This document shows positions 19,610 to 57,363 of a stretch of DNA of 64,000 nucleotides, one piece after another (within the stretch, counting starts at the first letter, position 1; each line of letters opens with the position of its first letter). The stretch comes from Dudresnaya verticillata (Eukaryota): positions 1,364,001 through 1,428,000 of the forward strand of contig OZ374560.1 in assembly GCA_977862235.1 (NCBI GenBank), in the 5' to 3' direction. The translations under genes were made by a program, and so were the position numbers. The notes under the pieces are model-generated. The model was not told the origin of the DNA, did not search any database, and saw nothing but the letters and a program-made list of their open reading frames with translations.

Positions 19610-19653
19610 ACTCGCGAGAGGTGGAACGCCGTGAGGCGGGGATGGCGGCGCCC

Positions 19654-24569: not shown

Positions 24570-24791
24570 ACTGGTCTCCCGACCTAAAAGTGTGCTACGT
24601 TTCAACGAGTTACTCCGTCGTGCGACGTCCGACCTTCCGTCTCTAGACGTCCGTCGCTAATCGTCCACGACGTTCAAGCAACTCTACGACTGCATTATGG
24701 CCTCACGACCGCCGCCGTCGCGAGGCCCCAGTTCAAGAAGACCGTCATCGACGCCGGGGAGTGCCCCGCGTCGGAGCGGTCGCTACAGTGG

Positions 24792-30200: not shown

Positions 30201-31158
30201 CTTCGACGTGAGTATTATTGGCCGTCTATGTCGGTGGATTGTTACGCGACCGTCCGCAACTGCGTTACTTGCGCGAGGAACCGGGTACTGATGCGAAAGA
30301 ACGTGAAGGAGATGAAACTGTTCCCAGCAGCCGAGCCTCTCGAGTTTGTGTCCATCGATATACTCGGGGAGCTCATACGCACTACGCGGGGGAATACGTT
30401 TCTACTCGTCATCGTAGACCACTTCTCGAAGCTGGTCCGGACGGTGCCCTTACGTAAGATTACGGCATTGGAAATCACTCAGGCGTTTGTTCGACACTGG
30501 GTGCTGGTGTATGGCCCACCCAAGAAGCTGCTGTCCGACAATGGGCCGCAATTTGTAGCCAAGTTGTTCCAGGACGTCTGCCGCATCTTAGGGGTGGAGA
30601 ATCTCTTCAATACTACGTACCATCCGCAGTGTAACGGCCAAGTGGAACGATTCAATCGAACCATCCTCGCCTCCCCGCGTCACTACGTAGCAGACCACTC
30701 CAGGGACTGGGATTTGTTCACCGATGCTCTGACGTTCGCGTACAATACGCAACTGCACTCGTCCACCAACCTCGCTCCATTCGAGCTGGTGCTATCTAAG
30801 CCCCCGCGGCCATTGTCGCTGGAAGCGGAACCGTCGCTCGAAAGCGTGCCCACTGCCGGACAGTACTACACCAAATGGCGAACCTGTCTGTCCGCATTGA
30901 TGGGAACCGCTAAAGCGTCGCTCGCGAAAACGCAGGCGCGTTACAAACGGAACTTCGATACTCGTCTGCGGAAATCGAAGGAGAACATCGCTGTGGGCGA
31001 CTTTGCATTCGTGCGGAAGGAATACTTCGCCCGGGGCGGGAGCACCGATCGCTCAGAGCGCAAGCACAAGCTCGCGCCAGTGGCGGATGGACCGTATCGA
31101 GTCACTCACGTCGACGACGGGACAGTCACCGTCGACAAGGGACGCGGAGAACGCGAGC

Positions 31159-32143
31159 AACACCCATTTAAGCCATTCCAGAATCTGACTTTGAAAACAG
31201 ACTGGAGTCGAATAGCTATTTTATGGTATCGTTGGAAAGGGGAGCGTGCCCTGAGTACGATGGTGAAATCCGATTGGCCAACGGACCATTTGTTCCAAAG
31301 TTATGGCGGTTTGCGTGATTTTACACAAAATAATTCAAGGTTTTCCGAAATTTAATTTCTATGCGTCGATTTGGCCGGGCCGGGCCACTCCGTGGTCCGG
31401 ACTGGGCCAAATTGGTCCGCCCGGTCCCCCCCTGCCCCATGCGCTCGCCCCCTCTCCCTGATGCCACGGCACGCCCCCCCATGGCACACAATGCCCCGAT
31501 TGTACCGTGCCGCCCCGCGCAAAGCCGCGCAGATGCGTGCGCGACCCTGTTTCCACAGCTCCTACTCTGCCGCGCCACGCCTTCTCACCGCACGCACTGT
31601 ACTGCCCTGTGCGCGTCCGTACGGGAATACAGACTGCCTCGTCGCCCGTTTCCCGCACCCGCCCCGCGAGGCTCATGACCAGGGACAGCCCTACTACCGC
31701 GGGTGCCCACCAGCGCGCACACCCTGATCCCCGCTACCGACCCCACTTCCCATACCACTGCTGAATTTTGACTTCGCAGCGGTGAGCAGCTCGATTGGCA
31801 CCCCCGAATCTATACCGCGCTCTTATCCCACTGCGGTTATCCCAGCATCGCCAATCTTCACCGTCATCGCGTTCTCAAGCTGTACAGATGCGCGCCTGAA
31901 CCAACAACCGCCTCCCCATCTAGCTCAGTACCTGCGCAACTACTCCTGCGGCCTTAGTGATTTCCAGGGGCTTCCCAAAGATGCGACAGGGGGCGGAACG
32001 CGTGACAAGCCACGTTTGGTGCCGTGAGCGAAGGCGGGTTGTAGGGCCTAGCAGTCGGCGTCAGACAAGACGGTAGTGCGAAATGTTGTTAACTCGGTAA
32101 GCTCACGGCGGGGAAAGGCGGTGAAGGGCTTGTGGGCACGATT
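31159..32143 (+). repeat. Left TIR (core ~470 bp, extending with indels to ~32143)
   Basis: Reverse complement of ~48745-49446. Confidence 0.9.
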
Positions 32144-32252
32144 GTACTCTACTGCTAAAATGAATCATGCTCCCACCATATGCGACTAGTGCATGCACGG
32201 ATTCAACACCACAAGGAAGGTTTCGGTTAATACCCTTTACATCCAAACCCAC

Positions 32253-32522
32253 TCATGCCTCTGATTCGGGATCTTCTACCGTCCACTCCAACGGGACCTC
32301 CCAGCCCAGCAACCCTAACACACCCCGAGCTCCCCTCATCACCCCTGCTCCAACCTGGCCAGCCCTCGCGATCATTTCACGTGCCCATCCCATGAGCTGG
32401 TCCCGGAGCCAAAAAGTGGTATCCAGCTCAGCCAGGGCAACTCCGCGCGCCTCGATGATTTCAGCGCGGAGCTCCCTGAGTTCTTCTACAAGCGTTTCGG
32501 GAGCTGTGTCGGAAGGTAGCAT
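32253..32522 (-). CDS. 89-aa helical protein of unknown function, copy A
   Basis: MLPSDTAPETLVEELRELRAE..WTVEDPESEA; paralog of 46995-47264 with the same length and conservative substitutions. Confidence 0.6.
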   Translation of the reverse strand: MLPSDTAPETLVEELRELRAEIIEARGVALAELDTTFWLRDQLMGWAREMIARAGQVGAGVMRGARGVLGLLGWEVPLEWTVEDPESEA

Positions 32523-32526
32523 TTTG

Positions 32527-33228
32527 TCACCGTGCATCGCCGTTGGGGTCCGCGGTGTCCTTCATATAGACCTCGACACCGATACATTGTCTGCACTGAG
32601 TATAGAAAATACCAGCATGTGTACATCGAAGACAGCCACTTTGGCTGCACAAAGTGTAACAAAATCCACCTGCCCAATGTCTATCGTTTCGGATTTCTCC
32701 TGACTCATCAAAGAAAGCCGTGGCATACAAGACGCTGATGTTATGTTTAGCTTGCTCGGCCCTCGCCCTCCTGACCTCCTCCGAACCTTCCATATTTTCC
32801 TTGGCATAATGCCATGTGACTAATAAACGGCACATTCTCTCCAGGTCGCGAACGGGCGCGCTTGCCGTCCTAGTTGCCTCGAGTAGCACAGAATCTATGT
32901 CGTGAGCTGTTGCACCATAGAAACCGTCATCACAAACGTACTCCAACTTCTTCATCCCGGTCCTGTACACGGCATCCAGCATCTTGCAGTCATGCTCGTG
33001 TTGCGATAGAACATGGTTCAACTCGCTATTTCGACTTCCATTCATGAGTGTTTCGCTCTCACGGACTTCCAAAGCGTCCATTACCCGCCGTGGAAACTGC
33101 AAATACTCAATCCGAAGCCTCCTCGAGCGATTGTTTAGTCTGCATTTCAGCTGCGCTCTGACGTGCTTGTGAAACTTTCCAAAAGCAGATTGCATGTACT
33201 CGGGAACTGCACCAAGGCCCGAAAACAT
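32527..33228 (-). CDS. Hypothetical 233-aa protein with a C-terminal Cys cluster
   Basis: ATG-initiated; C..LC...C..C....C..C near the C-terminus; the stop lies 4 nt before the next ATG. Confidence 0.45.
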   Translation of the reverse strand: MFSGLGAVPEYMQSAFGKFHKHVRAQLKCRLNNRSRRLRIEYLQFPRRVMDALEVRESETLMNGSRNSELNHVLSQHEHDCKMLDAVYRTGMKKLEYVCDDGFYGATAHDIDSVLLEATRTASAPVRDLERMCRLLVTWHYAKENMEGSEEVRRARAEQAKHNISVLYATAFFDESGEIRNDRHWAGGFCYTLCSQSGCLRCTHAGIFYTQCRQCIGVEVYMKDTADPNGDAR

Positions 33229-33759
33229 TGTTGTGATAGACCCGATGATGTGAAAGCTCTGCTTGCTCTGATGTGAGCTTGGCGTTAGCTGCGAGGGGAT
33301 CTACTATCGTGGTAAGGGGTGAAGTACGCAGTAATGAAAATAGACGAGCCTCTCTTCACAATCTCGGCTCGAGCCGCGGAGTTCTTTGACGGTCCACGTG
33401 TATTCGTACGGCATGCATTTCAATAGACACCAATGAGGGGATATATCTTACTTCGCTCTGCAACGTGGGGCATTTCCACTACCTGTCCACTTTGTACGTT
33501 TACGCCGCCACGTGGCGTCGTTCATGGGGTGTCGTTTTGCCAGCAGGCAAGAATGTGTAGTGCCTGAGGACCTAAGCAAACTGTTACCGGCTGTTCATAA
33601 TACGAAGATCTGGGGGCACATGGCAGACGTAATGAAGACACGACATGTCAGTAGGAGTGATTAATGCTGTTCCAAATCAGAATACTAACCGGTGCGAAAA
33701 ACCAATATGTGTCAAGCAGGGAATTTGTCCGCAGCTGAACCACAGCCAAAACGCCTTTA

Positions 33760-34365
33760 CTACAGCTGTGACCACGGGTCACACTTTCCTTTACAATCGA
33801 ATGTACTGTCGCTGCTCAGCTTCTCTATTTCCTTCTTTCTGCGATTGAACTTCTGAACAGCACAGTAGTACTCGTTTCTCTCACGGTAGTTACTGAACTT
33901 CCTTTCCCCACGACACCCAACCTCAAGCAGAATGGCTAAACTTGGATCCGCCAACAGCTTCTGGTTCTGTCGATCCTGAATTTCCTGCGTGAACCGTTTG
34001 AATGCCCCTGTACACTCCTTCTCCTGCTCGTATCGAGACAATGAGCACCCTGAAATCCTTCTCAAGAAGCGTTGGAAGACAGACCGATCGAAAGGTCTGA
34101 AACCGAGTTTGTCGTATCCGCGTACTGCTATTCCGCGAGTCCTCATCAAGCAGAGAACTGAGAGCAATTGACGCTCTCCGATTCGACACGCCATTTCCTC
34201 AGTGCTCTCATCTTCTGTGCAGAGCATCTTGAGGTCGAATGAGGACAATTCTTCAGAAAGCTCCAAATTGTCCAGCTGAAATCCGACAGTTCTGTTACAC
34301 TCTGATGTATCTAGCGACCTGCCCTGGCTTCCGACTCGTTCGCTCATTGTCTCTCCAGTCTGCAT
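33760..34365 (-). CDS. Hypothetical 201-aa transposon protein
   Basis: ATG-initiated ORF with protein-like composition; no family recognised. Confidence 0.4.
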   Translation of the reverse strand: MQTGETMSERVGSQGRSLDTSECNRTVGFQLDNLELSEELSSFDLKMLCTEDESTEEMACRIGERQLLSVLCLMRTRGIAVRGYDKLGFRPFDRSVFQRFLRRISGCSLSRYEQEKECTGAFKRFTQEIQDRQNQKLLADPSLAILLEVGCRGERKFSNYRERNEYYCAVQKFNRRKKEIEKLSSDSTFDCKGKCDPWSQL

Positions 34366-35276
34366 AACGAGTTATCCTTCTGTTTGTTTCGATATTGCCC
34401 GCGCACTGTGTGTGTGGACGCATTACCCCCAAGATTTAAGTGTTCAGTTGTCAACTTTTTCTTCCAGATGGTAGAGCGGCTTTTTTCGAAACTGTACAGA
34501 TCCCAAGATAGCCACGTGGATTAAGGATATGGCCTAATCAAGGAAATGGGCGTGTCTGTAGCCACGTTTTGTTTCAGATTTGACTTTGTACAGGGCCTGT
34601 CGTGGATCGCTTCCGACGTGGGAAGACAGAATTTTGCCAATACCCTTAAACGCAGTGTCTATGCTATATACGCTATATATGCTATTGGATGATATCTCGA
34701 GATATAATATAATCAAAGTACCCTTTCCGCATATCTCAGTGGATAATAATGCCTCCCGCCCTGCTCCAAACAGCGTCACTGTGGCCTTTACGTGTTGTAA
34801 CGTGGCGGAAAAGGCTGCATGATTTCTTACTCCACCTAAGAATTCAGGCGGCCCCTCATGACGAGGAAAAGTGAAATCAGAACCTCTGGACGGTAGGTTT
34901 GTCCTGTCGTATGGTCTCCCGATTCTTAATCCTGCACTTTGCGGACTGTAAGGTAGTTTTCACTGATTAAAGCAGTACGAGTTGCACGAGGTGGTCAAAC
35001 CGTTCTGGCACTAGACATGGGAATACTGAACGGGCATGTGCACTGCAGTATCAATATGCCATCCACTGACTCTGAAATGATTGCAGCCTGAGCCTCGACG
35101 ACAACAAAGTTAACAGAACGTTTCACGCCTATACGAGCATAAGCTCGTGTCCCGCAACGTGTTATCAAGACATTCAGCATCCTGCAATAAGGGCTGCAGA
35201 ATTGCGGAACCCACAGAACAGAACTGTGACAGACCTTCGAAACTCGCCGCCGCGTTCAACAGGGAGTTTGTACGAG

Positions 35277-38229
35277 ATGACGAGAAAGGGAACAGGACAA
35301 GGGGTTGATAGCTCCCCTGCAGAAGCAGAAATAGCTTCCTCCATTAGTAGAGGGAAGGCGTTGTTCGCTGATGTCATGGATGGCTCGGTCAACATTCGAA
35401 TCGACCCCAGAGCATGTATTCCATTGACACAGATAAGGCCTGTTGTGCGATCTGGTGTGGAACGACTAAAAGCGCGTTTTCACCTACGTTCTTCTCAAGA
35501 CAGGGAGGGAGTTGTTGGCTATGTCGCTGGGTCCGACTCCCCTATCGTTGTAGAACTAAACGGAGCACTAAGGGGTTTGGTTGTAGCATATTTCAAGAAG
35601 TCGAAAACAGAAGGAGGAAATTTGTGTTCCGACGAGGATGCATCGGTAAAGTCGAATAGTCGTGCCAAGTGGTATGGTATTGTGGATGGAGTACATCGAC
35701 ATCGTGTCATATCAGAATTAATGGAGGAAGTTCCCACAGTGTGGCAATCGTTTGCGTGGCCAGTCACCGTACTGAAAAGGCGGTCACAGCGTCTGTGAAC
35801 TACGACAGCTTGCCCGTCACCAGAATGAGAAACATGCACAGGGGTATTTCATCGAAACTATGTTTTACGATCTTATCCACGGCTTGCGACAGGAGGCTGA
35901 CCGGTTGCAATCCAAGACAGGGAAGCAACCCAGCGCCCCCAGAATTGCTGAGGCTTATGATAGCTCGAAGCTGTATCGCAACAACACCATTAAACAGACT
36001 GCTCAGACTGTTATGCGTTTGGATCAGAAGGTTATCGATGCAATAGGACTCATCACAAATGAGGAAAGGCCGGACTTGGCTGCCAAGATAAGCTGCGACA
36101 GGGAAGGCACGTCGATGGACAAAGATGGGGCAATGCGAAGCGTCGACTGTAGAGTGTACAGGAAATTCATCCATATATCGTCTCTAAAGTCTGCAGCATC
36201 ATACATTAATGCAAGCAAGATGTCGGACGGGGTGGAAGTCCAGATAGCTACATTGTACAGACTCCGTGAAATGCACCGACTTCAGAACTTCCGGCCTGTG
36301 GCAAGCTATCAGACCCTGGAGCAGTTTCAGAAAGCGAAGGAGGCAATGAAGGAAGCGCGTAAATTCGAACGAGTGTTGGAGACCCAAACTTGGCCGGAAG
36401 GTATGCAGGTCATTCGGGAAAACCTTTTGCACTCCACGAAGTTGGACCATGAGGTACGCGCGAACTTCGGCAACGATCAGGATGTTATAAAGCCGTTGCT
36501 TGATGCATATCGAAGGGAATGCCCTCAGGAAGCTCCACGGAAAGAAAAGAAGTTTAGATACCAGTTCCGCACACAGGTCGAGTCCCAGGGGGAATCCAAT
36601 CCCGCAACTGGCCAGAAGGAGAACCATTCGGTTTCAATGTCTAAGATTGGCTCCGATAGCGTGGTTGATCGGAGCAATGCCGAGGAAAAGGATGGAATGG
36701 ACGGGATGGCACTTGAAGAAGAGCAGGAAAATCTCGACATAACTACCGGCGTCGTCAATCAGACACTGCATATGACCACACCGGTCAAGGTGCATGGCAA
36801 TGAAGACGGCGAGAATGGTGAGACCGGTACAGCAGAACAGGTTGATCAGCGTGGAGAGAATGTTTCCAGGCCCTCTCTTCGCTCAGCGGCATCTACTCGA
36901 CAATCGGAGAGATTAAAAACATCGTCTATTGTTATCTCCAAATGCGGAATAAGCACCCATCAGATGCTGTGGGAAGAGTAGGACCAGTCAATCCGAAACG
37001 AGTCCAGTCCTCTATTTGACCTTGTCCTTGCAGACCCACCGTACGGGACACCGAAGGGCATGTCAGACGCTGGTACTGCGTATGATAACAGGTTTGCTGA
37101 AGAGGACGTCAGGCGGTTGTGTGAGTTCTGCGGACGAGTAGTGAAGGAGGGTGGGTGGGTCTTCATCTTTTGCAGTTTTATGAACTTCCCCACATTTAGA
37201 AGAGCTCTTACGGAGAAGAGCTTCGATTGCCCGCAGTACCCATTTGTGATATGCAAGGACACATCTACGATGCAGATAAGTCGCAGGAAGGGATTACAAA
37301 ATGGTGCTGAGATTGCAGTATTTGGCAGGCGAAAAGGAATATCGAAGGCATCATTCTCCCCCGACTTGTCAAGTCCGTACCACTACGTTCCATGTGGCGA
37401 GAGAAGAAAGTTCGCTGTCATGAAATCTGTTCCCGCGGCAAGGGATAAAATTCTGAAGCCTGGAACGACTAGAGCTCCGCTTCTCACAGAAGAAAAGAAC
37501 CCGGACATGCTCACTGAAGTCCTTACCACGTTCTGCCCTGACGGAGGTTCTGTTCTGGACACACACGCCGGAACGATGACTACAGGAATTGCGTGTCTCA
37601 GATTGGATCGGAAGTGCACTCTTGTGGAAAGCAAAGCTGAGACGTTCAGATTAGCCACAGAAAGACTACAACGCCTCGCCAACGAGAAACAGAGTTGCGT
37701 ATCTGGGGATTTACTTCCAAATAAGCGTTCAACGGATCTTTCGGAGACGCAAGAAAAATCGAAGAAGGCGCGTCAAGCTGAGTGCGGAGTGGCATCGCAC
37801 ACTAAGGATGTCACAGAAGCGGGGAAGGATGAAAAACAGGGTTACAGTGTCGTGCAAGACTCAGTAGCAGTGAAAGACAAAATCTTGTCTCAGGACTCTT
37901 CCTTCAAGCGCGGTGGGGCGAAACTGAAAGGGGGCGACAGAGTGTGGCTCAGATACGGGCAGCAGAAAGTTGGGGAGGCGACAATTCAGCCGAATGAAGA
38001 CGGAACTGGGGTTAAGGAGAAAATGCACGGTCACTCGTTGCAGCAGTTCAGCAAACCTGGTGAACATCTCGTGGCGGTGTTCTCATTCAATCTGTTAGAG
38101 GCATTTTCTGACAAGCCATACAATTACACCTTCAAGGGCCCGGAGGAACAACCGGCCCTGCTTAGAGAGTTAACTGCATTCTTTGCGTGGGATCTCAAAG
38201 AGATGGAACCTTTCGAACCCGAGTCGTAG
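35277..38229 (+). pseudogene. ParB/Srx-domain + beta-class N6-adenine/N4-cytosine DNA methyltransferase + transposase-shared C-terminal domain (~983 aa reconstructed)
   Basis: PIVV..YGIVDGVHR (DGVHR at 35685-35699); +1 slip in the A-run at ~35775; in-frame TAG at 36979-36981; then DLVLADPPY (DPPY at 37033-37044), EEKNP and VLDTHAGTMTTG (37552-37587). Confidence 0.85.
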
Positions 38230-38328
38230 ACATCTTGAAACACCTGCACTTTTGCTGCGTAATAAACTCACATTTTTCGCCGGTCAAGAGTGCGCTTCGT
38301 TCAGCAGGCAGCTCTCGTTTCCATACCC

Positions 38329-38652
38329 ATGGCGTCATCGCGAGACAATGGACATGAGGCCGGCACTGCAATGGACGTGGATACGAAAGCACTTCTCTCC
38401 GAGGTACGGGCTCTTCGAATGGAGGTAGACGCGCTACGAACTCGAGTGGAAAGCGCTCGGCAGAGAATGAGCGAGGTAACCACCAACGTCATGGACCGCT
38501 TGTCGAGGGTTGTGGTTCAGGCAGTGCACATCGCGAGAGCTGCGAGAAGAAGACTGCAAACCATCGAACGGCGTCTTGGGATACAAGTCCTGGGTGAAGA
38601 CGACCCTGAGTTGGATTCGGATATTGAGAACCAACTTCAACACAACTTCTGA
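38329..38652 (+). CDS. Small coiled-coil protein (107 aa)
   Basis: Heptads LLSEVRALRMEVDALRTRVE; acidic tail. Confidence 0.55.
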   Translation: MASSRDNGHEAGTAMDVDTKALLSEVRALRMEVDALRTRVESARQRMSEVTTNVMDRLSRVVVQAVHIARAARRRLQTIERRLGIQVLGEDDPELDSDIENQLQHNF

Positions 38653-38673
38653 AAAGCTCGACCAACACCCGAA

Positions 38674-38946
38674 ATGCCGTTGCCCCTTAACCCAACCGTT
38701 GGCGACGCACAGGTCGAGGTCATACGACTACGTCAACAAGTCACCCATCTGCGGAACGTAATCCGTGACCTGGAGGGCGAAGTGCAAAGCGCATCCAATT
38801 TCGTTCGCTACCTCATTCAAGAATTCGGGAGAAGGATAATAAGTGCGCTTCGTCATGCTCGGCGAAATGTACAGGACTTGCATCGTTCTGTACGTGCACT
38901 TAGGGAGGAAGTAGAACGCGATGTAGAAGATCCACTCTCGGAATAG
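38674..38946 (+). CDS. Small coiled-coil protein (90 aa)
   Basis: Heptads VIRLRQQVTHLRNVIRDLEGEV; starts 21 nt after the previous stop. Confidence 0.55.
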   Translation: MPLPLNPTVGDAQVEVIRLRQQVTHLRNVIRDLEGEVQSASNFVRYLIQEFGRRIISALRHARRNVQDLHRSVRALREEVERDVEDPLSE

Positions 38947-39488
38947 GCTTCGTGCAATTGTTGTAAACGATCTGATTTGATTGTCCATACCTGTTGCGAT
39001 GACAACCTTCGCAATGCCGTTTTCGGATCCACTCGAGCGCACACGCTTACCCACTGAGACATCCACATTGAGCAGACGGGAGAGAATATTACCCGCATGG
39101 GTTTCTTTGTCGCCCGCCATTTCGTATCACTTCTCGACCTCTGCGAGAATCTGCCCCTCTCCATTAACAAGCGAGTCCAGACCGACCGACACACGGTCGA
39201 CCAGGGGAAAGGCAGGCTCACCACGCTCCATCCGCTCAATATTAGCCACTTGTATCGAGCATATTCTCGGTCTCTGGCCTCAACATGAGCACGTTAACAA
39301 GCGCGTTGACGCAGCTCAGAAAGTCGTCCACCTGCTACTCAGCGAAGGCTTGCACACCTTCTGTTGCGACGCCGTTCCGACTCCAAGCGGATACTGGATA
39401 TCCCATGGCCGCTGCGGCCTTGCCGACGGTAGAGCCGACGGTGTCAGAGCCCATGCCACCAACTGCGAACCTGTACCGAGGGATGAAC

Positions 39489-39905
39489 GCTAGTTTCTGC
39501 CATCGCTTTTCTTGCTGGAACTTGAGGTATTATCCCAAGCCGATTTGAAGTTGAATAACCCAGTGCATGACATAGGCTGCCATGTCTATAGCAACATCGG
39601 GATCTACTAGGCGAACAATAGTTATGTGCTCCGGGATTTCATGCAGAGCAGGGTGGGCGGCTCTGCTTCCTACAAGGTGAATGGCGTGTTGGTTGGGTAG
39701 GCTCAACATTTGAGGTATTGGCATGTGCCAGATTACAAGATACTGGACTTGGCGCCACAGCTCTTCGTTTGGATCAATTACGGTCTTGTCAGCGCGCCAT
39801 TCCCCGACTTTAAAGTCAGGAAGCAGACGAGATAGCTCGCGCATCCACGCTAGGTTTTCACTCTCTATCTGGCAAAAATACTCGAGAACAATTGTGTCGG
39901 GCATG
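39489..39905 (-). pseudogene. Captured fragment: N-terminal half of a GhrA-like D-2-hydroxyacid dehydrogenase
   Basis: LPN..AIHL..IPEHITIVRLVDPDVAIDMAAYVMHWVI; after a stop, YLKFQQEKRWQ; the NAD-binding half is missing. Confidence 0.65.
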
Positions 39906-40124
39906 GTTGCACCTTGGACCGTTGCCGAGACTGGGCCCGTGGGATGCAACCCCTCACCCTCTGTAGCTTGCATAGCATCGGCAGCAGTAGCGGAAATACT
40001 CGCAGTAGTCTTGGCATAATCCGCGGTGGCAGAGTCGCTTGCTGCGGCCTTTCCTCTTGCCTTGAGGTTTCCATTATTAATGCTTCTCCCCGCGACTGCG
40101 AGCATCGGCGTCATCCGCAGTCTG

Positions 40125-40480
40125 GTATCACTGAACGAAGATAGATTCTTGAAAAACGTGCCATCGATAGGTCTGCTTAGCCTGAACGACAGTGGGAAAT
40201 TTCACCAGCAATTCGCTCGACGAACATCAGCCCCACCGCCGACGGCGTGGAAGCAAAATCGGAGTACTCCTTGAGCAGTCGCTCCCATTTCAGGAGCAGA
40301 TCATTCGCGTCGAGCAATGTGCGCAGCGCAGACGTCCTAGCAGCAGCCTCGCGGCGCTGCGCGAGGGTAGCGTGAAGGTCGCCGATCGGCTCATCCAGCA
40401 AGCCGAGCAGCGCGACCAAGTCGCGGCGGAGCGCTTCCAGCGGGACTGCGGCCGCGTCGACAAGCGGCTCCGAGGCGGCG
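40125..40480 (-). pseudogene. Captured fragment resembling the N-terminus of COG2 (conserved oligomeric Golgi subunit 2)
   Basis: PLEALRRDL..LAQRREAA..LRTLLD..KWERLLKE..VERIAGE; more GC-rich than its flanks. Confidence 0.45.
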
Positions 40481-41079
40481 ATGGCCGGGCCGAACGAGGT
40501 GAAGGTGTTGAAGCATGTAGACCGGCCCGAACAGCATGAAGGCGAGGAATAGTGCGAGGAATAGTACAGGAATCAGGGTGTCCAACCCGCATGCAGCGGC
40601 GGTGGTGGAGCAGAGAGACGCGTCGAGTACTTCTGTGAGGCAGTAGCTAATTCGTTTCTCGTGCGTGGGAGCTATCGACGAATATGGATATTTCTAATAG
40701 CTCCTCGGCGACGCCCAGATCGAAAAGCTATTTTCTTAGGTTTCACGATTCCGCTTCCTGAATAGCTATGTAGCTAACGAGATTACCTCCAGGCAAATAT
40801 CTACTTTTTTAGGTTTTTTTCATTCTGACTAAATGGGGAGCTATGTAGCTCCGGCGGAGTCGCAAATCAAAAACCTATGAAAATAGATGTTTCATTTGGC
40901 GCATCTCAACATCTATTGGCCAATATCTATATTCGTTTATAGCTTTTCCAGATCTGCGTCCTGGTTTGCTACTGATCTCAATGTGTTACACAGGGCCTGG
41001 CCCACCTCTTCGTACTACCATCTCTTGCTTTGCACGTCCCTCTCCGCCTCCGCAACCCCCCGTTCCCCCGTTCGGGAGA

Positions 41080-41690
41080 TTGATTCACCCAAGCCCTTGA
41101 AGCATCACACTAGCTTTATCAACTATGTCTGCTTCTCCCCGGGCAGCTCCAAGCTCGCCATTGCGTCCTCGGATAGGTCCATTAGCATTGTCGACGTCGC
41201 CGAGGCGGACGTTATCGCCACTTTCAAGCGGCACACTGCGTCTGTCACTGGCCTGTGTTGGGCGGATGACGGCTCCAAACTTCTGTACTCGTCGAATGAC
41301 AAAACTACCCGCATTTGAAGCATTCCAGATGGCGAGTGCCTATCCACTGTCACCTTCGGCTCTAATGTCATGGACATGCAGGTGGGCTGCACCATTGCCC
41401 GCAACACTGGCGAAGTAGTGTTCGGCTCGCTGCATTCTGAGATATTTATCACTGGAGCCGATGGAAAGCGCAAGACCGTCATGCGCGGCCACGCAATGCA
41501 GAGTGTCGGCATTGCCGATGTGGCAGATAAGGTCTACTCGTCAGACTACTCGGGGCTCATGTTTGCTTGGACCTGCTCTTCAACGGCAAGGGCCCAAACC
41601 ACTGCTGTTTGTTCTATTCCTGCTAATGACCAAATTGTCGCGAATGTTGGACAGGACGTAAAGGTTTTCATCAGGATGGGGTGTCTCACG
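41080..41690 (+). pseudogene. Captured fragment of a WD40 protein, AIP1/WDR1-like
   Basis: HTSFINYVCFSP..HTASVTGLCW..DKTTRI* (W changed to stop), then DMQVGC..GH..YSSDYSG..W in the same frame. Confidence 0.7.
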
Positions 41691-41874
41691 GTGAGGGCAG
41701 GATGCGAGTTCTTGCATGTCACTTCGTATCTATAGCAGCGCACGAACCGGTCTCATACTCCTGGGCGCTACTACATGAGGCTGAAACTCAACTCCTAAAC
41801 ATATTTATTCACTATCAATCGTCCCATGGCATCATTTCGAGCAACCGATAGCCGCTCGCAAGGCTTTGTGGTCC

Positions 41875-44800
41875 CTACGCGATATTTTCCGATCGCATGT
41901 CCAGGGCTTCCCTAATTTTCCGTTGCGCAGTGACCGGGATCCCACCATTTGTTAAACGAGCAAACTCGACCAATACGGAGTTTTGAGGGACTTTATCTCT
42001 CCATGGAATGGTTTGGTCGACACCTTTGGTGACTTTTGCTTTTTTGTACCTCCCTGTAAACGTATTGCCTCTGCCCGTACTCCTCTCGTACCACTCCACC
42101 TCCAGAGTTGTTATCCTCCCCGTTTGGTTAGAATTCCAGTCCATGATTTGGCCAAACCAGAATGGACAATTTTCAGTACAGTCATCTCCCAGAACCGCTA
42201 CGAAGCTGTTCTTAGTATAAGGTAGGTCCTGCCTCACAACTTGCTCTTCTCCTGAATCGGCTTTGGAATCGGAATCGGATTCACCAGCGGGAACGATGCC
42301 ACTAGGCTTGTAAGAACCGTCTAATTCAAAGACATCCGGCAATGACCAGTGTAAAGGGGTCATCGCGGTCCGAATAAACTCTATCTCGGAGTGCCAGCAG
42401 TTTCTGCAACTTTGTGTGGTCGTTGATTCTTGTTTCCTCGGAACGCAGACGATTAGTAATTTCGTGCTCGTCGGGTGGGGAGCGACACGGTGTAGGCGGG
42501 GTTTTGCTTAAGTCTGGCGGGAATAACAAGAATCCTCCCTGTCCGTCTTTTGTTTGTAGTGGTTTCCAGGATTCCTTGCTCCATATCTTGACTTCGCAGC
42601 GTGTTTTAAACTTAGTAGGATGTGAGGCCAAAGGGCCTTCCGTTGTAAAGCGAAAGTACCGATACTCGGAAGTGGCCTCCGTTCGTCCGAGACACTCCTC
42701 CATGTTGCACAACCCGGAGAAATTAGCAACATGGCGTATTTCTGTAACGCGCGGCTGGGGTGTGTAGGAATGTCGCAATTCGTGCATCAGATCGTCCATA
42801 GTAATTGCATCTCCTACCCGCAGTCTCCTTGCTGTGCAGCTAAATACCTGGTCGATATCAGCATGTGTGTGCCCAATAGGTAGGAACGATGCATGCACTT
42901 CGCAAAACACACCCATGGCAACGAGAAACTCTAAGTACCCGAATAGATACTTGTTCTTGTTTTCCCTTGTACAGTTGTCGGCCTGGACATACAAAGTTCC
43001 CTTGAGTGGAATTCTGTCCCTACGGGACATTAGCATTCTGTGCAACGCCTCAATGACGTGATTGGCACCGGTCTCAAATTCACCAGTCATTGTGAATAGG
43101 TGGAGGTTCGCAGTTTGACCGTTCCAGGACACCAACAACCTTCGCCTTCAAGGCGTGCCCGCGAGTATCCTTCCGCTTGACATGGAAGTGGGGAATTCCG
43201 AACGCGGACTGATCTGCACCATCGATTATTGCAGAGCAGTAGCTCTTCGGGTGCATAGATGCCATTTCGCATTTCTTGCGATACTCTGTCCTCTCCGTCA
43301 TGATCGCTTTGACATGTCGTGACCGATGCTCACGAAGCGCTTCCGTGCCAGGAAGATCTGTAGTAGCCTTTGCCAGCAAGTCTTTGATATGTTCGCATTC
43401 AGGGCATTTCGCAAACCTATGCGTGCGCCGTACCTTGATTTGTGGGCAGTATCGAGTCCAGATGCTGTAAAAGTAGCTTTGAGATGGCGTCTCTCGCCTC
43501 GGATACAGAGCGTCATGTTCTTTCTTAAACGTGTTGTAAACTGCGAGTTTCTGATAGAACGGAAGATGAATCTCCTGCTTGTCGGGTTGCGCGTCCCCAG
43601 AGACTTCCGCAAGGCGCTCCAGAAAAGAGACGATGACTTCCAGTTGCTCAGTAGAAGAAGAAGTGACAGCGAGCCCTCTACCCTTCCTTTCACGACTGAG
43701 ATTGGTCCCCTTCACAACGGACTGAAGGTCTCTGGAAAAGCCGAACGCCCTCTCCAGAAATGTGTAGCATACAGGACGACCGCTAAAAAAATAAATGTTG
43801 GAGTTGTGCTCAAGAAGCCCTGCGAGGTAGCCTTTTCTCTCGGCCCCGTTCTGCGCCATGACTTTGCGCGACTCCGCTATGACATAAACAGGCTCGATAG
43901 TGGCGAAGCACTGCTTCGTCTTGCAGCAGTAGATACCGGACATGTCCTGACTCTCCAACGTTTCCAATACCCTCCGCCTTTTCGCCTGCATTATTGACCC
44001 TGAAAGGGCTCCTTCCGGGCGGTTGACATACCTGTATTGGCGTTTGCGCTTATCCCGCGAGGCTTGCAGTCTATCATTGTTAGCCTCTTTATCAACATCC
44101 CTGGTCTCCGTTGGGGTCCAGTCTGGTGACTCGTCAGCGTCCGGTGTGTGTTTATCGTCAGGACGCACACTATCATCATTGCTATCATTTGTTGGTGACT
44201 CGTCCCTCCTTGTGGTACACAATTCAACTTCATCCGAGGCGTTGCGACTCCCTTTTTCGCCATTATTCGCAGTATCCAATGCGTACGGACGACGGCACAT
44301 GGGAGCTTGTCGCTCAGGAGTGTAGATGAGTAAGGGCTGTTCCGGGACAGGCGAAGGCGTTCTTTCCTTGGTTTGCTCGATACCTTCACCAGGAAGTGCC
44401 TCAGCCACTGAGTCTGTACTGGTTCTATTCTCCTGTAACGACCGTTTCGGAGATTCAGAACGGGGAGTAGGTATTTTAGTTCCCATCCCTATCGTTGTAG
44501 CAATGCGCTGGAGTAGACCAGGCCTCGCTTTCCGTGATGGAAGCACCCTTCGAGCAACACGGCCATCATTTGCCGTATTACTTGTCAGTTTCGACTTGAC
44601 AGGGATATTCCCTTGCGCACCCCTGTAGTTTCCTCTTCCGTTTGCTTTCTCTTCCCATTTTTTATCTGCTCCCTGTCCCAAACATGAATTCCCACATTGA
44701 GTCCAGAAAGAGTGGGCGGTGGGGGCTCCAGTCCTGGGTACTTGTATTTGTAACGACTTTGAAGATGGTCTTTGTGAACGTTGACATTGTATATGACTAC

Positions 44801-45175
44801 CCATGTCTCGCCCTTACCTTGCAACGCCTTCAGCGAACGACCATGCATCTTCACCTTGAAAGCTCCCGTGTCATCCGCTTCTTCGGGTGCTGACGGCCTC
44901 ATTGGCTCAACCGTGCCTACCTCCTTTCTATCCATCATAAGTACGACACTCCTCGCCTGTACATGTTGCCTATCGCGCTGTTTGACGGAATCAGAACCGG
45001 GAGACTTGACGGTAACCATTATTTCGCGCTTCTCTTCGTGTTCTTCCTGCATATGCTCGTCGTTACGCAGATTGCAAGGCGTAGGATGGCACCCCGCAGT
45101 CGTTGGAGCGTTTCTTATGTCCGCAGTGACAACTTTAGCCATGCGTCTCTGCGCATTCTCCCGATCGCGACCCAT
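41875..45175 (-). pseudogene. DDE transposase of Sola1/DUF7869 type (~1100 aa reconstructed) with three frameshifts (~44660, ~43120, ~42353)
   Basis: CC..C and C..C Zn-like motifs; IIDGADQ, LYVQADNCTRENKN and FLPIGHTHADIDQVFS; C-terminal FVAV..PFWFG..VEWY barrel-like domain. Confidence 0.85.
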
Positions 45176-46994
45176 ATCGCTTTCGTGATTGTGGGGTGAG
45201 ATATCGATGTTCCACTGTTCGTATCTCTTCCTTGCCAGTGGAATGCGTGCACAGAAGAGTTGCCGGTGAGGGGCCTTCCGGAGTGGAATGCAGGAGGTTT
45301 CTACATCTCCAAGGCGTAAAAGAACGGTATTGGGTAGGGTGTACCTGGTTCGCGAACCTCGCGAGGGAGTGGTGTCGCTGCAGATGCAGTGTAGCCAGAC
45401 TGAGAATATGGGTACCCTTCGGGATACGCAGTCGCTGGAACTTACGGTTACGTGAAGAAAGAGAAGCAAGCAAGCATTTCAGTACGATTCCGGAATCGGA
45501 CTCACTGGTGAGTTGGCATTCGGGACAGCGTGTGGAGATGATCTTGAAACGAGTGGTGGAGGCGTTTGCTGCGATTTAGATCGTGATCGAGGCGTGCGAT
45601 TTTAGTAGACTAGCCACTCTGGATCCAAAGATTCAGCCATATCATTCATTGGGGTCCACAGCAGTGATGAATGACTAATAGGCCACCGTCTATGCCAATC
45701 AGAACCTGTGTCAACCCTGGACATGTTCCTTTTGCTGCAAGTGCAACACTTTCATACACGAGTATGGTCTTGAAGAGTATCTGTATTTGCGTGGAACCAG
45801 CTTATGGGATGGTTGGAGGTCCCGGCGGAGTGGACGGTGGTAAGTTCTGAATCAGAGGGGTGAGTGGGATTTGGGTGTAATGGGCAATAAGGGCGACATT
45901 CCGTGTGGCTTTGAGCAAGATTTGTTTCTACGTACTGTCTGTGCAAATACGTCGCAGTAGGAATCTTCTGACTTGAGGGAGATTATAAGTCAGTAGTTGT
46001 GGAGTTGACTGGTAAAGGTCCTACGGTTAACATATACATGACGCCCGCCGCAGTTCAAATATGCAGCGGAGCACTCCGCTGCCCCTCCTGGCGTCGGTCT
46101 CACGTTGTTGCGTGGCCCGCGCGCTGGAGCTCATGATAGCCTCGCCAACTTTACTAGACGTGAGGCGCAAGCATCACGATCGTGACGATACGAGCTGGAC
46201 GCAAAGGTCATTCGGCCCCATGGCGTGCAAGGCAAGGTGATCTGAAAGGGGCATTTGTGACTTCACTAAACATGTTTATTGTGCACAATAACAAAGCCTC
46301 TTCATTGATAACGCGAGAACCATAATGTGTAATCCGAATGCCAGCGCCGAGTCTGTGAGGAGAGTAATGTTGGGTTGGTGGTCCTCGATGTTGCACCTCA
46401 TCTTATCTCGACCAACTTTATTCAGACCCATTCAAGCATCACGACGCGAGCATGATGCAAAGAACATTCAGCCGCGGCTGCGCGCGTGGTGTACAAGGAA
46501 TTGTCGCAAAACAACAGAGGATATTTGACCATTGCCGTGTGGGTCACATCCTGGTAAGGACGAGGCCAGTATCGTGCATACGAGCCGGAAACCTCAGCAC
46601 ATTCAGCACCGTACCTGCAGCATGGAAGCACAATGACAGGGGACGCGGCAATATAAAGATGGGCAGCTGCCAAATGTCGCCAGCTTCGGAAGCATGTCCC
46701 ACCAGCACGTCCTGCTGACCGAGTATCGTCGATTGTATATGCAACGGGTTTTGAGCATGCCGAATGGTCTCAATCCTGACGCTTCATAGGAGCAGTGTCG
46801 TGGGATTTCGGACGCCATTCTTAACCACGATACCAGTGTGTAGGATGTGAGCCCCCCGTCAAGGTTGAATGAGGTGATCAAACACCGCATTTCTTTCCTC
46901 CTGAAAACGCCTGCGAAGTTGACTCGAGTCGAGGGTTGTTGATCAATAGGTCAGCGTGGAGACACGGGCCCAAACAGTGAAGCAAAGTGACGAA

Positions 46995-47264
46995 ATGTTA
47001 TCTTCCGACACAGCTCCAGAACGCCTAGTACAAGAACTTAGGGCACTCCGCGGTGAAGTCATCGAGACGCGCGGAGTTGCCCTGGCCGAGCTGGATACAA
47101 CTTTCTGGCTCCGAGACCAGCTCATGGGATGGGCACGCGATATGATGGCGAGAGCTGGGCAGGTTGGGGAGGGGGTGATGAGGGGAGCACGGGATGTGTT
47201 AGGGATGCTAGGCTGGACGGTCCCGTTGGATTGGACCGTAGAAGATCCTGAATCAGAGGCGTGA
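46995..47264 (+). CDS. 89-aa helical protein of unknown function, copy B
   Basis: Inverted paralog of 32253-32522; a third remnant (QLMGWLEVPAEWTV..SE) lies at ~45798-45863. Confidence 0.6.
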   Translation: MLSSDTAPERLVQELRALRGEVIETRGVALAELDTTFWLRDQLMGWARDMMARAGQVGEGVMRGARDVLGMLGWTVPLDWTVEDPESEA

Positions 47265-48744
47265 GTGGGTTTGGATATCAAGGTGGTTTGGATGTAAAGG
47301 GTATTAAACAAAGCTTTGTGTGTGGTGTTGAACCCGTCTTGTCCGAAGGTATTGCCACAGCAGATAATGTTCGCTGAGATGGAACAGCGCAGCAAGTTAA
47401 ACGGTTATTAACCATGAAGCTAATAGCTTCACAGTGAAGGACGTCTACAAGGTCGTCTTTCTCAAGAAGACCGCCGAGGTAGGGCCAGAGCATCACGATT
47501 TGCCCATGGTGCAAGCGCCTGGGGTGCCGGATACGATGAGAGGCGACGACGCGAAGTTCTCATCATGTGGACCTCTCCCAATATTAATGATATAAAGTTC
47601 TCATCATGTGGAGCTCTGCCAATATTAATACTTGTTACGCAGTTTGTCGCCGTCAGCGTCAATCTTCACCGTTTGACTCCTGCAGATTTGCCTCCTATGT
47701 AGTGCTTACGAGTATCCAGTAGGGATGCTCTAGCTTTATGCTTTCGTAAAGTGACGTCTACCCCCAATATTAAGACTTACTGAGATTGACAAGAAGGGAA
47801 ACGTCGGTGCAGGGCCAGGCGCTGTGCTGCGTCGTGGGTAGTTAACTTTGTAATGTAAGGAGTCCGTATTTGCAGAATGCAAACATTGTTAGTAGTGTGC
47901 CCTAGGGCAGCACCCACCATGCCGTAACAAGACTGCGAGGGCCCACCGCAATCCGTCGCTTGGTGATACTGTGATTGCATTTAACGACGATAGTTGTGCT
48001 GACACGATACGCAATTCAATGCTTTGGACAGGGGTCGCCATGAGGTGGGATAACGGCGGACTTCCGCTCAACCTGAACCTCCTCTTTTCAGTCCCACCAA
48101 GCCACAGATTCCGAATGAAACGAAAAACATTATGGCGAAAGCTACTCCTGCTGGCGCTGAAGAATTAGCGAAACCAAGACAGACCGCCGTCGCCGTTGAA
48201 GGTATTCAGCAAGAGGCGACTGTGATGGATGGAAACAGTTGACGATTTGCGAAGAGCCACAACAGGTCCACTTCCCTTTTGTGTCAGAGTAAGAACGAAT
48301 TGGACACGATTTTCAGGATTCAGAACCTAGTCGCTTGTGGGCTGAATATATTCTATCTTCTCTGGGAGGCGAGTTCAGTACGTGGCTGAGTAATCTGAAG
48401 AGCTTCAATGACGTTGTTGTTAGTGTCTCCGGCAATTCTGTTTATGGATCAGCAGTGCATACCGTAGTCGCATGTCGTTAGCGACTGAATCTAAGCCGTT
48501 TTGACAACCGCAGCAATATCCCAAAGCACCCCATCACACATCACCCGCACCCTGCTCCTCCCTCTCCACGCCTAGACGTGGAGTAATTTTTCTGGCTGGT
48601 ATCAAAAATATTCTCTCGGCCGCGGGTTAGAAAACAACCCGATCCTGCTGAAACAAGTCAGTTGTGGCGCTCTGCGCCCCAAGTGAATCACCCACACGCT
48701 TGCCACGGGCCAGCATGAAGCAAGCCGTCTCATCCGTGGCCGCA

Positions 48745-49446
48745 GTCGTGCCCACAAGCCCTTCACCGCCTTTCCCCGCCGTGAGCTTAGCGAGGGAACA
48801 ACACTTCGCACTGCCGTCGCGTCTGACGGCGATTACTGGACCAACTAAATCAGTGAGGCCGGAGCTCCGGACTCCTAGGAGTAGTCGCGCAGGTACTGAG
48901 CTATATATGGAGGTGCTTGTTGGGTCAGGCGCACATCTGTACAGCTTGAGAACGCGGTGACGGTGATCTGTATGCGTTCCCGTACGGACGCGCACAGGAC
49001 AGTACAGTAGGTGCGGTGAGAAGGCGTGGCGCGGCAGAGTAGGGGCTGCGGAAACAGGGCCGCGCACGCATCTGCGGTGCGGTGCGCGGGGGGGCACGAT
49101 ACAACCGGGGCATTGTGTGTCATGGGGGGGCGTGCCGTGGCATCAGGGAGAGGGGGGCGAGCGCATGGGGCAGGTGGGGACCGGGTGGACCAATTTGGCC
49201 CAGTCCGGACCACGGAGTGGCCCAGCCGGGCCAAATCGACGCAACGAAATTAAATTTCGGAAAGCCTTGAATTATTTTGTCTAAAATCACGCAAACCGCC
49301 ATAACTTTGGAACAAATGGTACGTTGGCCAATTGGATTTCACCATCATACTCAGGGCACGCTCCCCTTTCAAACGATACCATAAAATAGCTATTCGACTC
49401 CAGTCTGTTTTCAGAGTCAGATTCTGGAATGGCTTAAATGGGTGTT
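48745..49446 (-). repeat. Right TIR
   Basis: Reverse complement of the left end; high identity over the terminal ~470 bp. Confidence 0.9.
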
Positions 49447-51481
49447 GAGCGCTTATCCCGGGACCGCGTGGTATGGGCGCCAACCCCACCAGGGAACACC
49501 ACCCCCGCAACCGTGAAACCACCGGGGCCACCTCACGTACTGGGGCCCATTACCCCCACGTCAACTGACGAAGGAGCAGCAACCCCAGACACGCCGCAGG
49601 CGGACCCGGCAGGAGGCACAGGGACACCGCGAAGCACGGACGACTCGCGAGAACGACTGAATGCAACGCCGCGCAGTCGCGGGTTAGCAGAGCTCTCGCC
49701 CTTCGCCGCTAACCCCGACGACGTTGTATCGCAATCCGTCTCCGACGAGGAGGAGGGTCCAGGCATCCGCACACGAATGGGACACGTAACCTCGGCTTCG
49801 CCGGCTACCAAGGTAGGTTCCGCGTCGAGCGCATCGACTGACGTTGAGGAAGACCGCGCTAACGCGAAGGACGCCGCTAGAAGCGAGGAACCAGTACGCA
49901 AAAGCGACGAACCACAACCCGCTACGCAAGCGCTCGGGGCACCGCCCCAACGCCTTAGGCGATCGACTCGTCGAGTACGGTTTGCAGAACCGGTGCAGAC
50001 GCCCATCACGCAACAGAGTGAACCGCCCCAGGCGTTAGAAAGGCAGGAGCCCACGTCGACCGCTACAAGCGCGACGGAGTACGTTATCGAACGGGTTGAG
50101 TCGCACGCACACGCAGACGACGGCGAGATCCTCTATCGCGTCAAGTGGTTTGGATACCCCGCTTCAGCGAATACCTGGGAACCAGTGTCCAGTCTACCGC
50201 GATCGCACGTTGTGCGGTACCACCGTCAGAAGCACACGCGCCTGCCGCCAAACATCGACGACGAGCAACGCGGGTAACCCTAGTCAGGGTGGACGCTGGA
50301 AGCGACAACACACGCCACATACAAATTGACGCAGACGTGCACTCGTTACGAACGACGGGGGCTGTAATCAACCGGATCAAGGACGATTGGGTTGGCGACA
50401 CGCGAATAGGCAACCCTCTTCGGAGGGGGTCCGTAAGGACAGGACGGCTGACAGTAGTCAGGAGGCGTGGAGGGCGCACGCACCACACGAAATCGGACAA
50501 CAAACGAAATGGAAAATTTAATGTGAAAACAATAACGCGAAGGCACCAGCCAGGCGGCGGCGCCCAACAAACGAGAACCTGACAAGTGTGTGCCCAGCAC
50601 TACGAACGCCCACGAGGCACCCGAGCACGGACGCGACCGACCGTCTCCGACGTCCTCGCCCAGGCGTGCCACCCACGGCCAAGTCCGAAACTCGCCACCC
50701 TTACGGGCGGCGCACGCAACCGCCTCGAGGGTGACGCCCACGAACGTCAACGACGTTTCTCAAGTCGAGAAAGGGGTCGCCCGCAAACACGAGAGAAGAA
50801 GCAGTCGTCGAAGACGGAGTTGGGCTACGTTTCGTGCACGACGCGCTAATAGCAAAAATGACTCCGCCGCTGGGCGCGGCAGCCGCACCCAGGAGTCGCA
50901 GGAAACGCTCCCAACGCGCGGCGCATCGCCAACCTAACCGTCCCCGACGCTAACCCAACATGCCCTAGGTCAAGGACGAAAAGCCAACCAACGAACGGCT
51001 CCCCAACTACACATTCGCTTAACAAGCGGAATCACAATTTGAAGCAAAACGACTAAGTCGGCATAAGAACACGGGCCCTCCCAAAAGGGCTTACGCTACT
51101 GTAGCGGCATCAAGAAAAGGGAAAAACGCCATCAAGGCGGCACCACCCCAAGCTTTTACGCAAACGCTACTACAGCGGACAGACAACAACAACGTCTATA
51201 CGAACGGGACCCGTCGGCTACCTACTGCTCGCTATCGCAGCGCTCTACATCAAGCGGACACATAAGCAACTACGTTGGACAACGGTCAAGTTTATTCGGG
51301 CTTCACAAGCGAGGGTAACCCCCGTGCCTGCATGACCTTCCACTACGACCTACGTCGTGAGACGCGGCACTAACCGTCTATGACGTATGAATCCCTCGCT
51401 CGCCGCCCCACCACGGGGCAGGCAAAGCGACACCACACGCGCTCTCGCGTTCGCTAACCGTTCTTAACGATCTAACAAAGG

Positions 51482-53788: not shown

Positions 53789-54592
53789 TACGTCTGAGAC
53801 GTTGAGTAATCACACGCAACTGGCGGACTTCACACGATACGTCAACGACGGTCTCGGACTCCGCAGTGGAGTCAACTACGCCAAATGCGGAAGCAAACAC
53901 GGCACACGTCAACGACGCTGGACTGAACAACGCCGAAGGCAGACCTCAAAGAAACGCCCTAGGCGATGAGCGCACTCACGCGTGCACAAGATACGACGTC
54001 AACGACGGGGTCTCACGCACGCCACGGGCGAAGTTAGTCAACAACACGTCTTCGACGGGAGTTTTTGCTGCGCCAACAGGTCAAGGACGAAAAGCCAACC
54101 AACGAACGGCTCCCCAACTACACATTCGCTTAACAAGCGGAATCACAATTTGAAGCAAAACGACTAAGTCGGCATAAGAACACGGGCCCTCCCAAAAGGG
54201 CTTACGCTACTGTAGCGGCATCAAGAAAAGGGAAAAACGCCATCAAGGCGGCACCACCCCAAGCTTTTACGCAAACGCTACTACAGCGGACAGACAACAA
54301 CAACGTCTATACGAACGGGACCCGTCGGCTACCTACTGCTCGCTATCGCAGCGCTCTACATCAAGCGGACACATAAGCAACTACGTTGGACAACGGTCAA
54401 GTTTATTCGGGCTTCACAAGCGAGGGTAACCCCCGTGCCCGCATGACCTTCCACTACGACCTACGTCGTGAGACGCGGCGCTAACCGTCTAAGACGTATG
54501 AATCCCTCGCTCGCCGCCCCACCACGGGGCAGGCAAAGCGACACCACACGCGCTCTCGCGTTTGCTAACCGTTCTTAACGATCTAACAAAGG

Positions 54593-56899: not shown

Positions 56900-57363
56900 T
56901 ACGTCTGAGACGTTGAGCAACCACACCCCGCTGGCGAACTTCACACGAATACGTCAACGACGGTCTCGGACTCCGAAGTCAAGTCAACTACGCCGAAGGC
57001 GGAAGCAAACAAGGCACACGTCAACGACGCCGGACTGAACAACACCGAAGGCGGACCTCAAAGAAACGCCTTAGGCGATAAGCGCACGCACGCGTGCACA
57101 AGATACGACGTCAACGACGGGGTTTCACGCACGCCACTGGCGAAGTTAGTCCACAACACGTCTTCGACGGGAGTTGTTGCTGCGCCAACGGCGGGTTGAC
57201 AACTGAACGTGCGTCTTTGACGGGGCTCAACCAACGCCAAGGGCGGGCAAACGCAGACGCGAAGACGCGGGTGGCCGACACGATCGGCACTGGAAGAGAC
57301 GCAGACGCGGGAAGGGAGGCAGGCTGAAGCGGGTTGACGTGTTTGCGTTTTCGGAGGGGGTCG

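Follow-up and report, generated by a model that had tools for sequence, protein, structure and literature searches.

The DNA stretch analysed here, referred to throughout as the window, comprises 64,000 nucleotides of the eukaryote Dudresnaya verticillata (assembly GCA_977862235.1, contig OZ374560.1, positions 1,364,001 to 1,428,000 of the forward strand); all coordinates without a locus name are counted from its first letter. It carries a decayed giant transposon of 18,288 bp (31159-49446), which we read, at a probability of about 0.6, as a Sola1-like cut-and-paste element whose second gene encodes a ParB-like protein with a predicted amino-methyltransferase likely to methylate adenines in the element's own DNA. 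The genes for the DDE transposase and for the ParB-methyltransferase face each other tail to tail on the minus and the plus strand, respectively (Table 1), as an initial annotation made from the sequence had described, and the motifs and the DUF7869 profile match of the transposase bear this out. The window's own copy is dead and, as a single insertion, ordinary.

The insertion itself is real. It splits the integrase of a Gypsy retrotransposon, and when the flanks are joined across the element a single frame leads from the Gypsy integrase (rve, H2C2) into the chromodomain, as had been proposed together with the long terminal inverted repeats (TIRs) and the GAGC target duplication. The element begins with AACACCC at 31159 and ends with GGGTGTT at 49446; 469 bases can be aligned between its outer arms, with 27 differences (5.8%), and beyond these 469 bp the similarity is patchy, out to about 1 kb (31858-31947, 32055-32144). 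The chance of a four-base match at fixed ends is about 0.004. It should be noted, however, that the bases just outside both ends are also complementary, so that the single copy can equally be read as having a 2-bp duplication (AG) and CAAC ends, both readings yielding the identical empty site. With its ends one base further out (CAAC...GTTG) the element would be a non-standard Sola, which would also suit the departure of GAGC, in this single copy, from AWWT, the hallmark target of canonical Sola1 (as cited in PMC3845634; this and the other reports cited were available in part, and statements about them refer to the available text). The 4-bp boundaries are favoured because copies of Sola1-1_Ec32 from Ectocarpus show AAC ends and 4-bp duplications (PMC12477816). 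The CACTA and Plavaka transposase families, moreover, have no Pfam match in the window pieces, and four of four intact relatives scanned match DUF7869 only. We therefore consider the CAAC boundaries quite improbable. The terminal 21-mer has no exact match in viral contigs, and a query of the interval 31159-38300 against sequencing runs listed no run.

The host Gypsy also gives an age limit. An alignment of its long terminal repeats (LTRs) over 819 bases shows 10 differences (1.2%); if the element landed after the Gypsy, it is younger than this divergence, and the 5.8% between its arms would predate the jump. There are five breaks in total in the two big genes of the element, which are seen against intact relatives and substantiate the decay noted at the outset, and the host gag-pol region likewise falls into five open frames, in agreement with decay in place. 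Very probably, a DDE enzyme paired the ends, excised the element and inserted it with a 4-bp stagger into the Gypsy already present, its ends being 5.8% apart by then, and its genes decayed at a rate like that of the host pol. The element may have moved in trans.

The transposase matches PF25273 (DUF7869) with E = 3e-45, and 106 relatives were found among longer proteins, every one of which carries PF25273, with identities of up to 59%. Three frame changes interrupt the gene (between 44660 and 44117, near 43121 and near 42354), and the intact relatives P0010 and P0012 align to four segments of the window from about 44990 to 41900. Its motifs DGADQ, DNCTRENKN and GHTHADIDQ correspond to DGADQ, DNC.RENKN and GHTH.D[IV]DQ, kept in 46, 44 and 46 of 47 aligned relatives, respectively, and we take them to be of Sola1 type. 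DUF7869 transposases are also present on five contigs of prokaryotic genome bins (L001-L005), as contamination or as true bacterial relatives.

The accessory gene is broken twice, by a frame change near 35777 and by a stop at 36979-36981, and is spanned end to end by intact relatives of 970-1,010 amino acids (P0007 with 35% and P0119 with 39% identity; P0007 reaches 47% over the ParB-like part). Among 50%-identity representatives P0007 has 854 relatives at E<=0.001 and 132 at E<1e-30. The window protein matches PF01555 (E = 4e-14) and so do, at E<=0.01, 43 of the 45 full-length family members scanned; Pfam finds no SET domain in the window protein or in any of these 45. DPPY is present and stands upstream of motif I, which is the permuted order of beta-class amino-methyltransferases. 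In the predicted model of P0007 (pLDDT 81) the methyltransferase is best matched by CcrM (Z 24.1, rmsd 2.8, 226 aligned) and M.BceJIV (Z 22.9), with bdelloid N4CMT (Z 19.8) and M.PvuII (Z 19.4) as further strong fold matches. Residues 48-193 of the model have the ParB/sulfiredoxin fold (PadC, Z 9.4, rmsd 2.5, 97 aligned; Pnob8 ParB, Z 8.8; KorB, Z 7.7; and sulfiredoxin): by predicted structure the N-terminal part of the accessory protein is ParB-like. Pfam gives no match for this domain of the window protein, and sequence profiles alone detect no ParB in the family, with weak DndB matches in 4 of 28. The Atlas look-alikes of the accessory protein (0.85-0.86 at the feature level) are phage proteins with ParB_N and PF01555 and one streptophyte cluster, which hint, as a lead only, at the origin of the gene.

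The transposase and the ParB-type gene recur as partners elsewhere, which upholds the proposal of a multi-gene Sola-like element. For this comparison 86 transposase loci were used (5 from genome contigs, 1 viral and the best 80 of 393 metagenome matches), the metagenome scan being made with the transposase alignment because the methyltransferase alignment is too variable; a scan of viral contigs with the latter found nothing. At 9 of the 86 loci, corresponding to eight separate elements (L018 and L014 are the same), a ParB-type open reading frame (ORF) adjoins the DUF7869 transposase, L055 (profile E = 0.032) being left out of the count. A methyltransferase domain is visible in four of the eight: by Pfam in L011 (ParB; PF01555, E = 2e-18, with DPPF) and in L022 (ParB-type; PF01555 plus SET), and by motif together with a weak profile score in L018 (OTU, ParB and DPPW) and in L029 (ParB box and DPPY). 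The partner in L012 is ParB-type and of the window's own family (profile E = 2e-79). The catalytic cores of the paired transposases are 29-46% identical mutually and to that of the window, and they are scattered over the transposase tree, in which L012 and L033 are unlabelled or not included. In addition, P0007 and the transposase P0022 each lie on a single Logan contig 7,140 bp long, which they probably share.

Some structural details of these loci may be added. The OTU protease, ParB-type and methyltransferase-like parts of L018 stand in a single frame (711-4283). Between the ParB-type gene and the transposase, L011 (5034-5329), L022 (5873-6119) and L058 (4067-4303) have long palindromes, such as are absent from the window and could serve as binding sites or as bidirectional promoters. 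L086 (17-9819) is an apparently whole DUF7869 element of 9.8 kb with inverted ends of 516 bp (90%) and no methyltransferase; the tail of its transposase has a Tudor match, and its divergent ORFs look by eye like OTU-SET and 2OG-oxygenase, Pfam giving no support.

The two proteins of the window have a domain in common. The C-terminus of the accessory protein and the first domain of the transposase are 29% identical (pairwise E = 5e-9), and a profile of the shared domain matches the N-terminus of 14 of the 106 transposases and the C-terminus of 26 methyltransferase-family proteins, including 15 of the 45 with at least 800 amino acids. Across 25 aligned rows H, P, L and W are invariant. A small, mainly beta fold is predicted (pLDDT 89), for which there is no Foldseek match at E<=0.001, the best Z being 3.6 (SH3-like barrels) and Atlas scores 0.79 at most; a complex prediction of both copies, for which alignments were not used, scored 0.01. 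A likeness to the CACTA TNP1 domain found no Pfam support and was discarded. In the tree of the domain the transposase copies fall in three places among the methyltransferase copies, which suggests, and because of the low supports only suggests, that the domain has been exchanged repeatedly between the two kinds of gene. Through it the transposase and methyltransferase genes are tied into one evolving unit. Both proteins may be guided by it to a common DNA motif or partner, a possibility to which we lean less than to its opposite. Neither the shared domain nor the broad occurrence of the pairing was found in the literature searched; Supplemental Table 6 of Petroll et al. (bioRxiv 10.1101/2025.02.11.637652), a listing of elements with these accessory genes, may contain red-algal Sola families.

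How such an element could work can be outlined as follows. The transposase would, by analogy with its family, pair the long inverted ends, cut and insert with a 4-bp stagger; the accessory protein would be recruited to the element by its ParB-like and helical part and there methylate adenine in the element's DNA; and thanks to the mark the element would stay transcribed, or its ends would stay competent, in the face of host silencing. The intact accessory protein is, with odds somewhat better than even, an active methyltransferase, for which N6-adenine is preferred over N4-cytosine because of DPPY and of the best matches CcrM and M.BceJIV. That the ParB-like and helical part loads the enzyme on the element and that the mark maintains transcription or end competence has odds a little below even. 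A fully coupled machine, in which the shared domain would bring transposase and methyltransferase to the same end motif, self-written N6-methyladenine (6mA) would license or time transposition, and the whole would be inherited with DUF7869 across many eukaryotic lineages, appears unlikely to us. Such a machine would be the eukaryotic, element-encoded equivalent of Dam control of bacterial insertion sequences.

Several observations weigh against our main reading of the element. In the methyltransferase family DPP[YF] is kept in 16 of 47 aligned members and absent from 31, and in motif I (the FxGxG loop that binds S-adenosylmethionine) the last glycine, present in the solved bacterial match, is replaced in 47 of 47 (by L, M or F in 45); the D, the aromatic residue and the first G are kept in 46, 41 and 42, and the window has DTHAGTM. 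With respect to the pairing, the contig of L012 ends before any methyltransferase, and for three of the eight partner calls (L033, L053, L058) the evidence is either a short motif or a low score. Eleven loci have 4 kb or more on one side; a ParB partner is found in five of these and is missing from six, among them L008, which is of the same transposase clade as the window. The genes are head to head in seven of the paired elements and in tandem in one, whereas those of the window are tail to tail. No tandem inverted-repeat array lies beside the accessory gene here, in contrast to Bostrychia PAG3, and to these points the departure of GAGC from AWWT has to be added.

The missing DPP[YF] and the replaced motif I glycine speak for a rival reading in which the accessory protein would be mainly a DNA-binding or scaffolding protein, a weak or dead methyltransferase fold binding DNA while the ParB-like or fused chromatin domains act. 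Distant partners swap in SET (L022) or OTU (L018), L086 with its SET-like and oxygenase-like ORFs has no methyltransferase, and inactive N6-adenine methyltransferase domains are known on DIRS1 transposons (PMC4738411). DPP[YF], on the other hand, is kept by the window copy, by five of its closest full-length relatives and by the distant L011 and L029, the intact P0007, P0119, P0135, P0136 and P0137 all having DPPY, and more than 200 residues of the P0007 model can be aligned with active enzymes of the beta class, so that a mainly binding role seems doubtful. An enzyme that is active but forms N4-methylcytosine (4mC), or that acts on DNA at large, be it host chromatin, rival elements or target sites, would also agree with PF01555, which covers both chemistries, and with the strong fold matches to bdelloid N4CMT and M.PvuII. 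There is likewise no repeated binding-site array: within the element neither a parS-like array nor a clearly skewed short word was found, GATC being mildly depleted (z -3.3, uncorrected for the number of words). Serine-first motifs, which are typical of N4-cytosine enzymes (PMC4738411), occur, however, in only 1 of 47 members and there in degenerate form, and a benefit in cis would better explain why transposases throughout the tree keep so costly a gene of 3 kb at their side; we regard this alternative, too, as unlikely, and keep to adenine methylation of the element's own DNA as the likelier reading.

Finally, the methyltransferase gene could be a one-off capture or a separate nested element, outcomes for which the initial annotation had recommended checking the co-occurrence of both genes. 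The element does capture gene fragments (ghrA-like and WD40), and the six long loci without a partner point in the same direction. From these six loci it follows that the accessory gene is optional. The methyltransferase gene alone is, on the other hand, not bracketed by any internal repeat pair in the element; its full-length family is conserved, the pairing recurs, one domain is shared with the transposase and Ectocarpus offers a parallel. The loci L011, L012, L018, L022 and L029 largely refute the capture, which is hardly credible any more. The accessory gene is thus an old, though optional, companion of DUF7869 transposases.

Table 1. Features of the transposon and of its host Gypsy in the window (empty cells: nothing to report).
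Feature	Position	Strand	Evidence or remark
Host Gypsy (chromodomain) retrotransposon that took the insertion	23746-58282	+	LTRs 23746-24571 and 57364-58282
Left target duplication, GAGC	31155-31158		sequence; alternative reading AG at 31156-31157
Left terminal inverted repeat	31159-32144	+	469 bp at 94% to right arm, then patches
Inner inverted duplication, left copy	32197-32552		81.5% over 373 columns to right copy
89-codon helical ORF, left inner arm	32253-32522	-	dN/dS about 0.22 against right copy
257-amino-acid open frame	32527-33300	-	no family; no relative found for the ORF 32530-33231
203-amino-acid open frame	33760-34371	-	no family found
Accessory gene, about 980 codons	35277-38229	+	ParB/Srx-like domain, helical region, linker, predicted beta-class amino-methyltransferase (DPPY), C-terminal shared domain
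Shared beta domain, about 95 amino acids (HG...YxY...P..L...WD), methyltransferase C-terminus	37918-38214	+	homologous to transposase N-terminal domain
Two short helical (coiled-coil-like) ORFs	38329-38946	+	weak coiled-coil matches only; gene status unproven
Captured glyoxylate/hydroxypyruvate reductase (ghrA-like) fragment	39533-39904	-	tblastn E = 6e-9
Captured WD40 gene fragment, internal stop	41094-41735	+	
DUF7869 DDE transposase gene	41875-45205	-	N-terminal shared domain (44654-44989), linker, Cys-rich region, catalytic core, C-terminal domain; start codon not fixed
Inner inverted duplication, right copy	46965-47337		pairs with 32197-32552
89-codon ORF, right inner arm	46995-47264	+	duplicate of the ORF at 32253-32522
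Right terminal inverted repeat	48743-49446	-	
Right target duplication, GAGC	49447-49450		sequence

Besides the two large genes the element contains smaller cargo. The two copies of the 89-codon ORF both point outwards and differ by about 20 synonymous and 16 non-synonymous changes, and from the resulting dN/dS this ORF is likely a real small accessory gene; a third, decayed trace of the inner duplication lies at 45801-45914. The small coiled-coil ORFs of the initial annotation are there as two helical plus-strand ORFs, and their standing as genes has no independent support. The ghrA-like and WD40 fragments are Pack-type captures. A helical fragment on the minus strand at 40177-40572 matches nothing in Pfam or NCBIfam and is perhaps akin to a Golgi-tethering (COG2-like) protein. 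Between 47554 and 47778, within a 1.4-kb segment unique to the right side, there are two 35-bp repeats and three CCAATATTAA motifs.

Inside the host Gypsy a 3.1-kb tandem duplication (50967-57189), with transition-rich differences, carries a minus-strand ORF of 509 and 786 amino acids without Pfam match; its copies are 4.9% apart and thus more diverged than the Gypsy LTRs (1.2%). An inverted partial LTR copy follows the 3' LTR directly, forming a long imperfect hairpin (57596-58783). Elsewhere in the window an inverted pair of NAD(P)-binding reductase genes (796-1461 and 8940-9605, 71%) encloses an EgtB-like gene (1892-3274) and two trypsin-like genes, a second Gypsy element lies on the minus strand at 13840-22943 (LTRs 1.2% apart), and a Copia-type element (RVT_2), whose direct repeat spans at least 271 bp, occupies 60217-64000 and continues past the end of the window. 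The absence of introns from the genes and the repeat landscape would suit a red seaweed.

Among known systems the element is another giant Sola1 of the Sola1-1_Ec32 kind, already in print and barely studied. The first impression that it belongs to no described family has to be given up, since an element of this architecture is on record from Ectocarpus (Dinatale et al. 2025; PMC12477816). Sola1-1_Ec32 has 21,549 bp (18.3 kb here), a 4-bp duplication, AACCG ends and an imperfect TIR of 282 bp (at least 469 bp here), and it encodes on the opposite strand a protein of 1,104 amino acids, ParB-like and with an N4C/N6A methyltransferase, which Dinatale et al. propose to bind and modify its own element, citing earlier cases from green and red algae. 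Giant size, long imperfect TIRs, an opposite-strand ParB-like and methyltransferase gene for about 1,000-1,100 amino acids and, with the favoured boundaries, the 4-bp duplication and AAC ends are thus common to both, and we infer that the accessory proteins, compared by description only, are homologous. The differences are ends in AACAC here rather than AACCG, GAGC here whereas the Ectocarpus duplications are biased to end in A, the captured ghrA-like and WD40 fragments, and the domain common to both proteins, which the available Ectocarpus account does not mention.

Similar accessory genes are known from another transposase superfamily. Giant Plavaka (EnSpm) elements of red algae, 17.4-19.1 kb in size, carry PAG1-3, of which PAG2 combines a PF01555 methylase with SET and PAG3 a ParB-like part with an oxygenase, and such genes travel between elements of several types, Mutator, Zisupton and Fanzor included (Petroll et al., bioRxiv 10.1101/2025.02.11.637652); EnSpm elements of 16-20 kb with multiple ORFs are described from Chondrus (Arkhipova and Yushenova, PMC6431247). 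The likeness to Plavaka lies in the giant size and in the methylase and ParB-like accessory genes, the difference in the transposase and in the union of ParB and methylase in one protein, without SET. L022, with ParB-type, methylase and SET parts beside DUF7869, bridges the two builds. With canonical Sola1 the element has the DDE transposase, TIRs and, with the favoured boundaries, the 4-bp duplication in common, whereas canonical elements have a few kb, one ORF and AT-rich targets, and the ends of the insect examples begin with GG (PMC3845634).

As an enzyme the accessory protein resembles CcrM, M.BceJIV, M.MboIIA and phage ParB-methyltransferase fusions in fold and DPPY, and differs from these bacterial and phage proteins in a larger helical insert, a changed motif I, the extra C-terminal domain and its setting in a eukaryotic transposon. 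A functional model is VANC of VANDAL elements, likewise a transposon-borne accessory protein acting on its own sequence (as summarised in Petroll et al.); VANC is, however, unrelated and removes host methylation, whereas here a mark would be added. Bacterial-type 6mA and 4mC methyltransferases could plausibly enter eukaryotes and spread in them by way of transposons that carry a DNA-marking enzyme of their own, and such an enzyme is possibly an anti-silencing device; the intact relatives with DPPY make its predicted activity directly testable. To the systems already described the present analysis adds that the pairing recurs across the DUF7869 tree, with SET, OTU or the shared domain as interchangeable additions.

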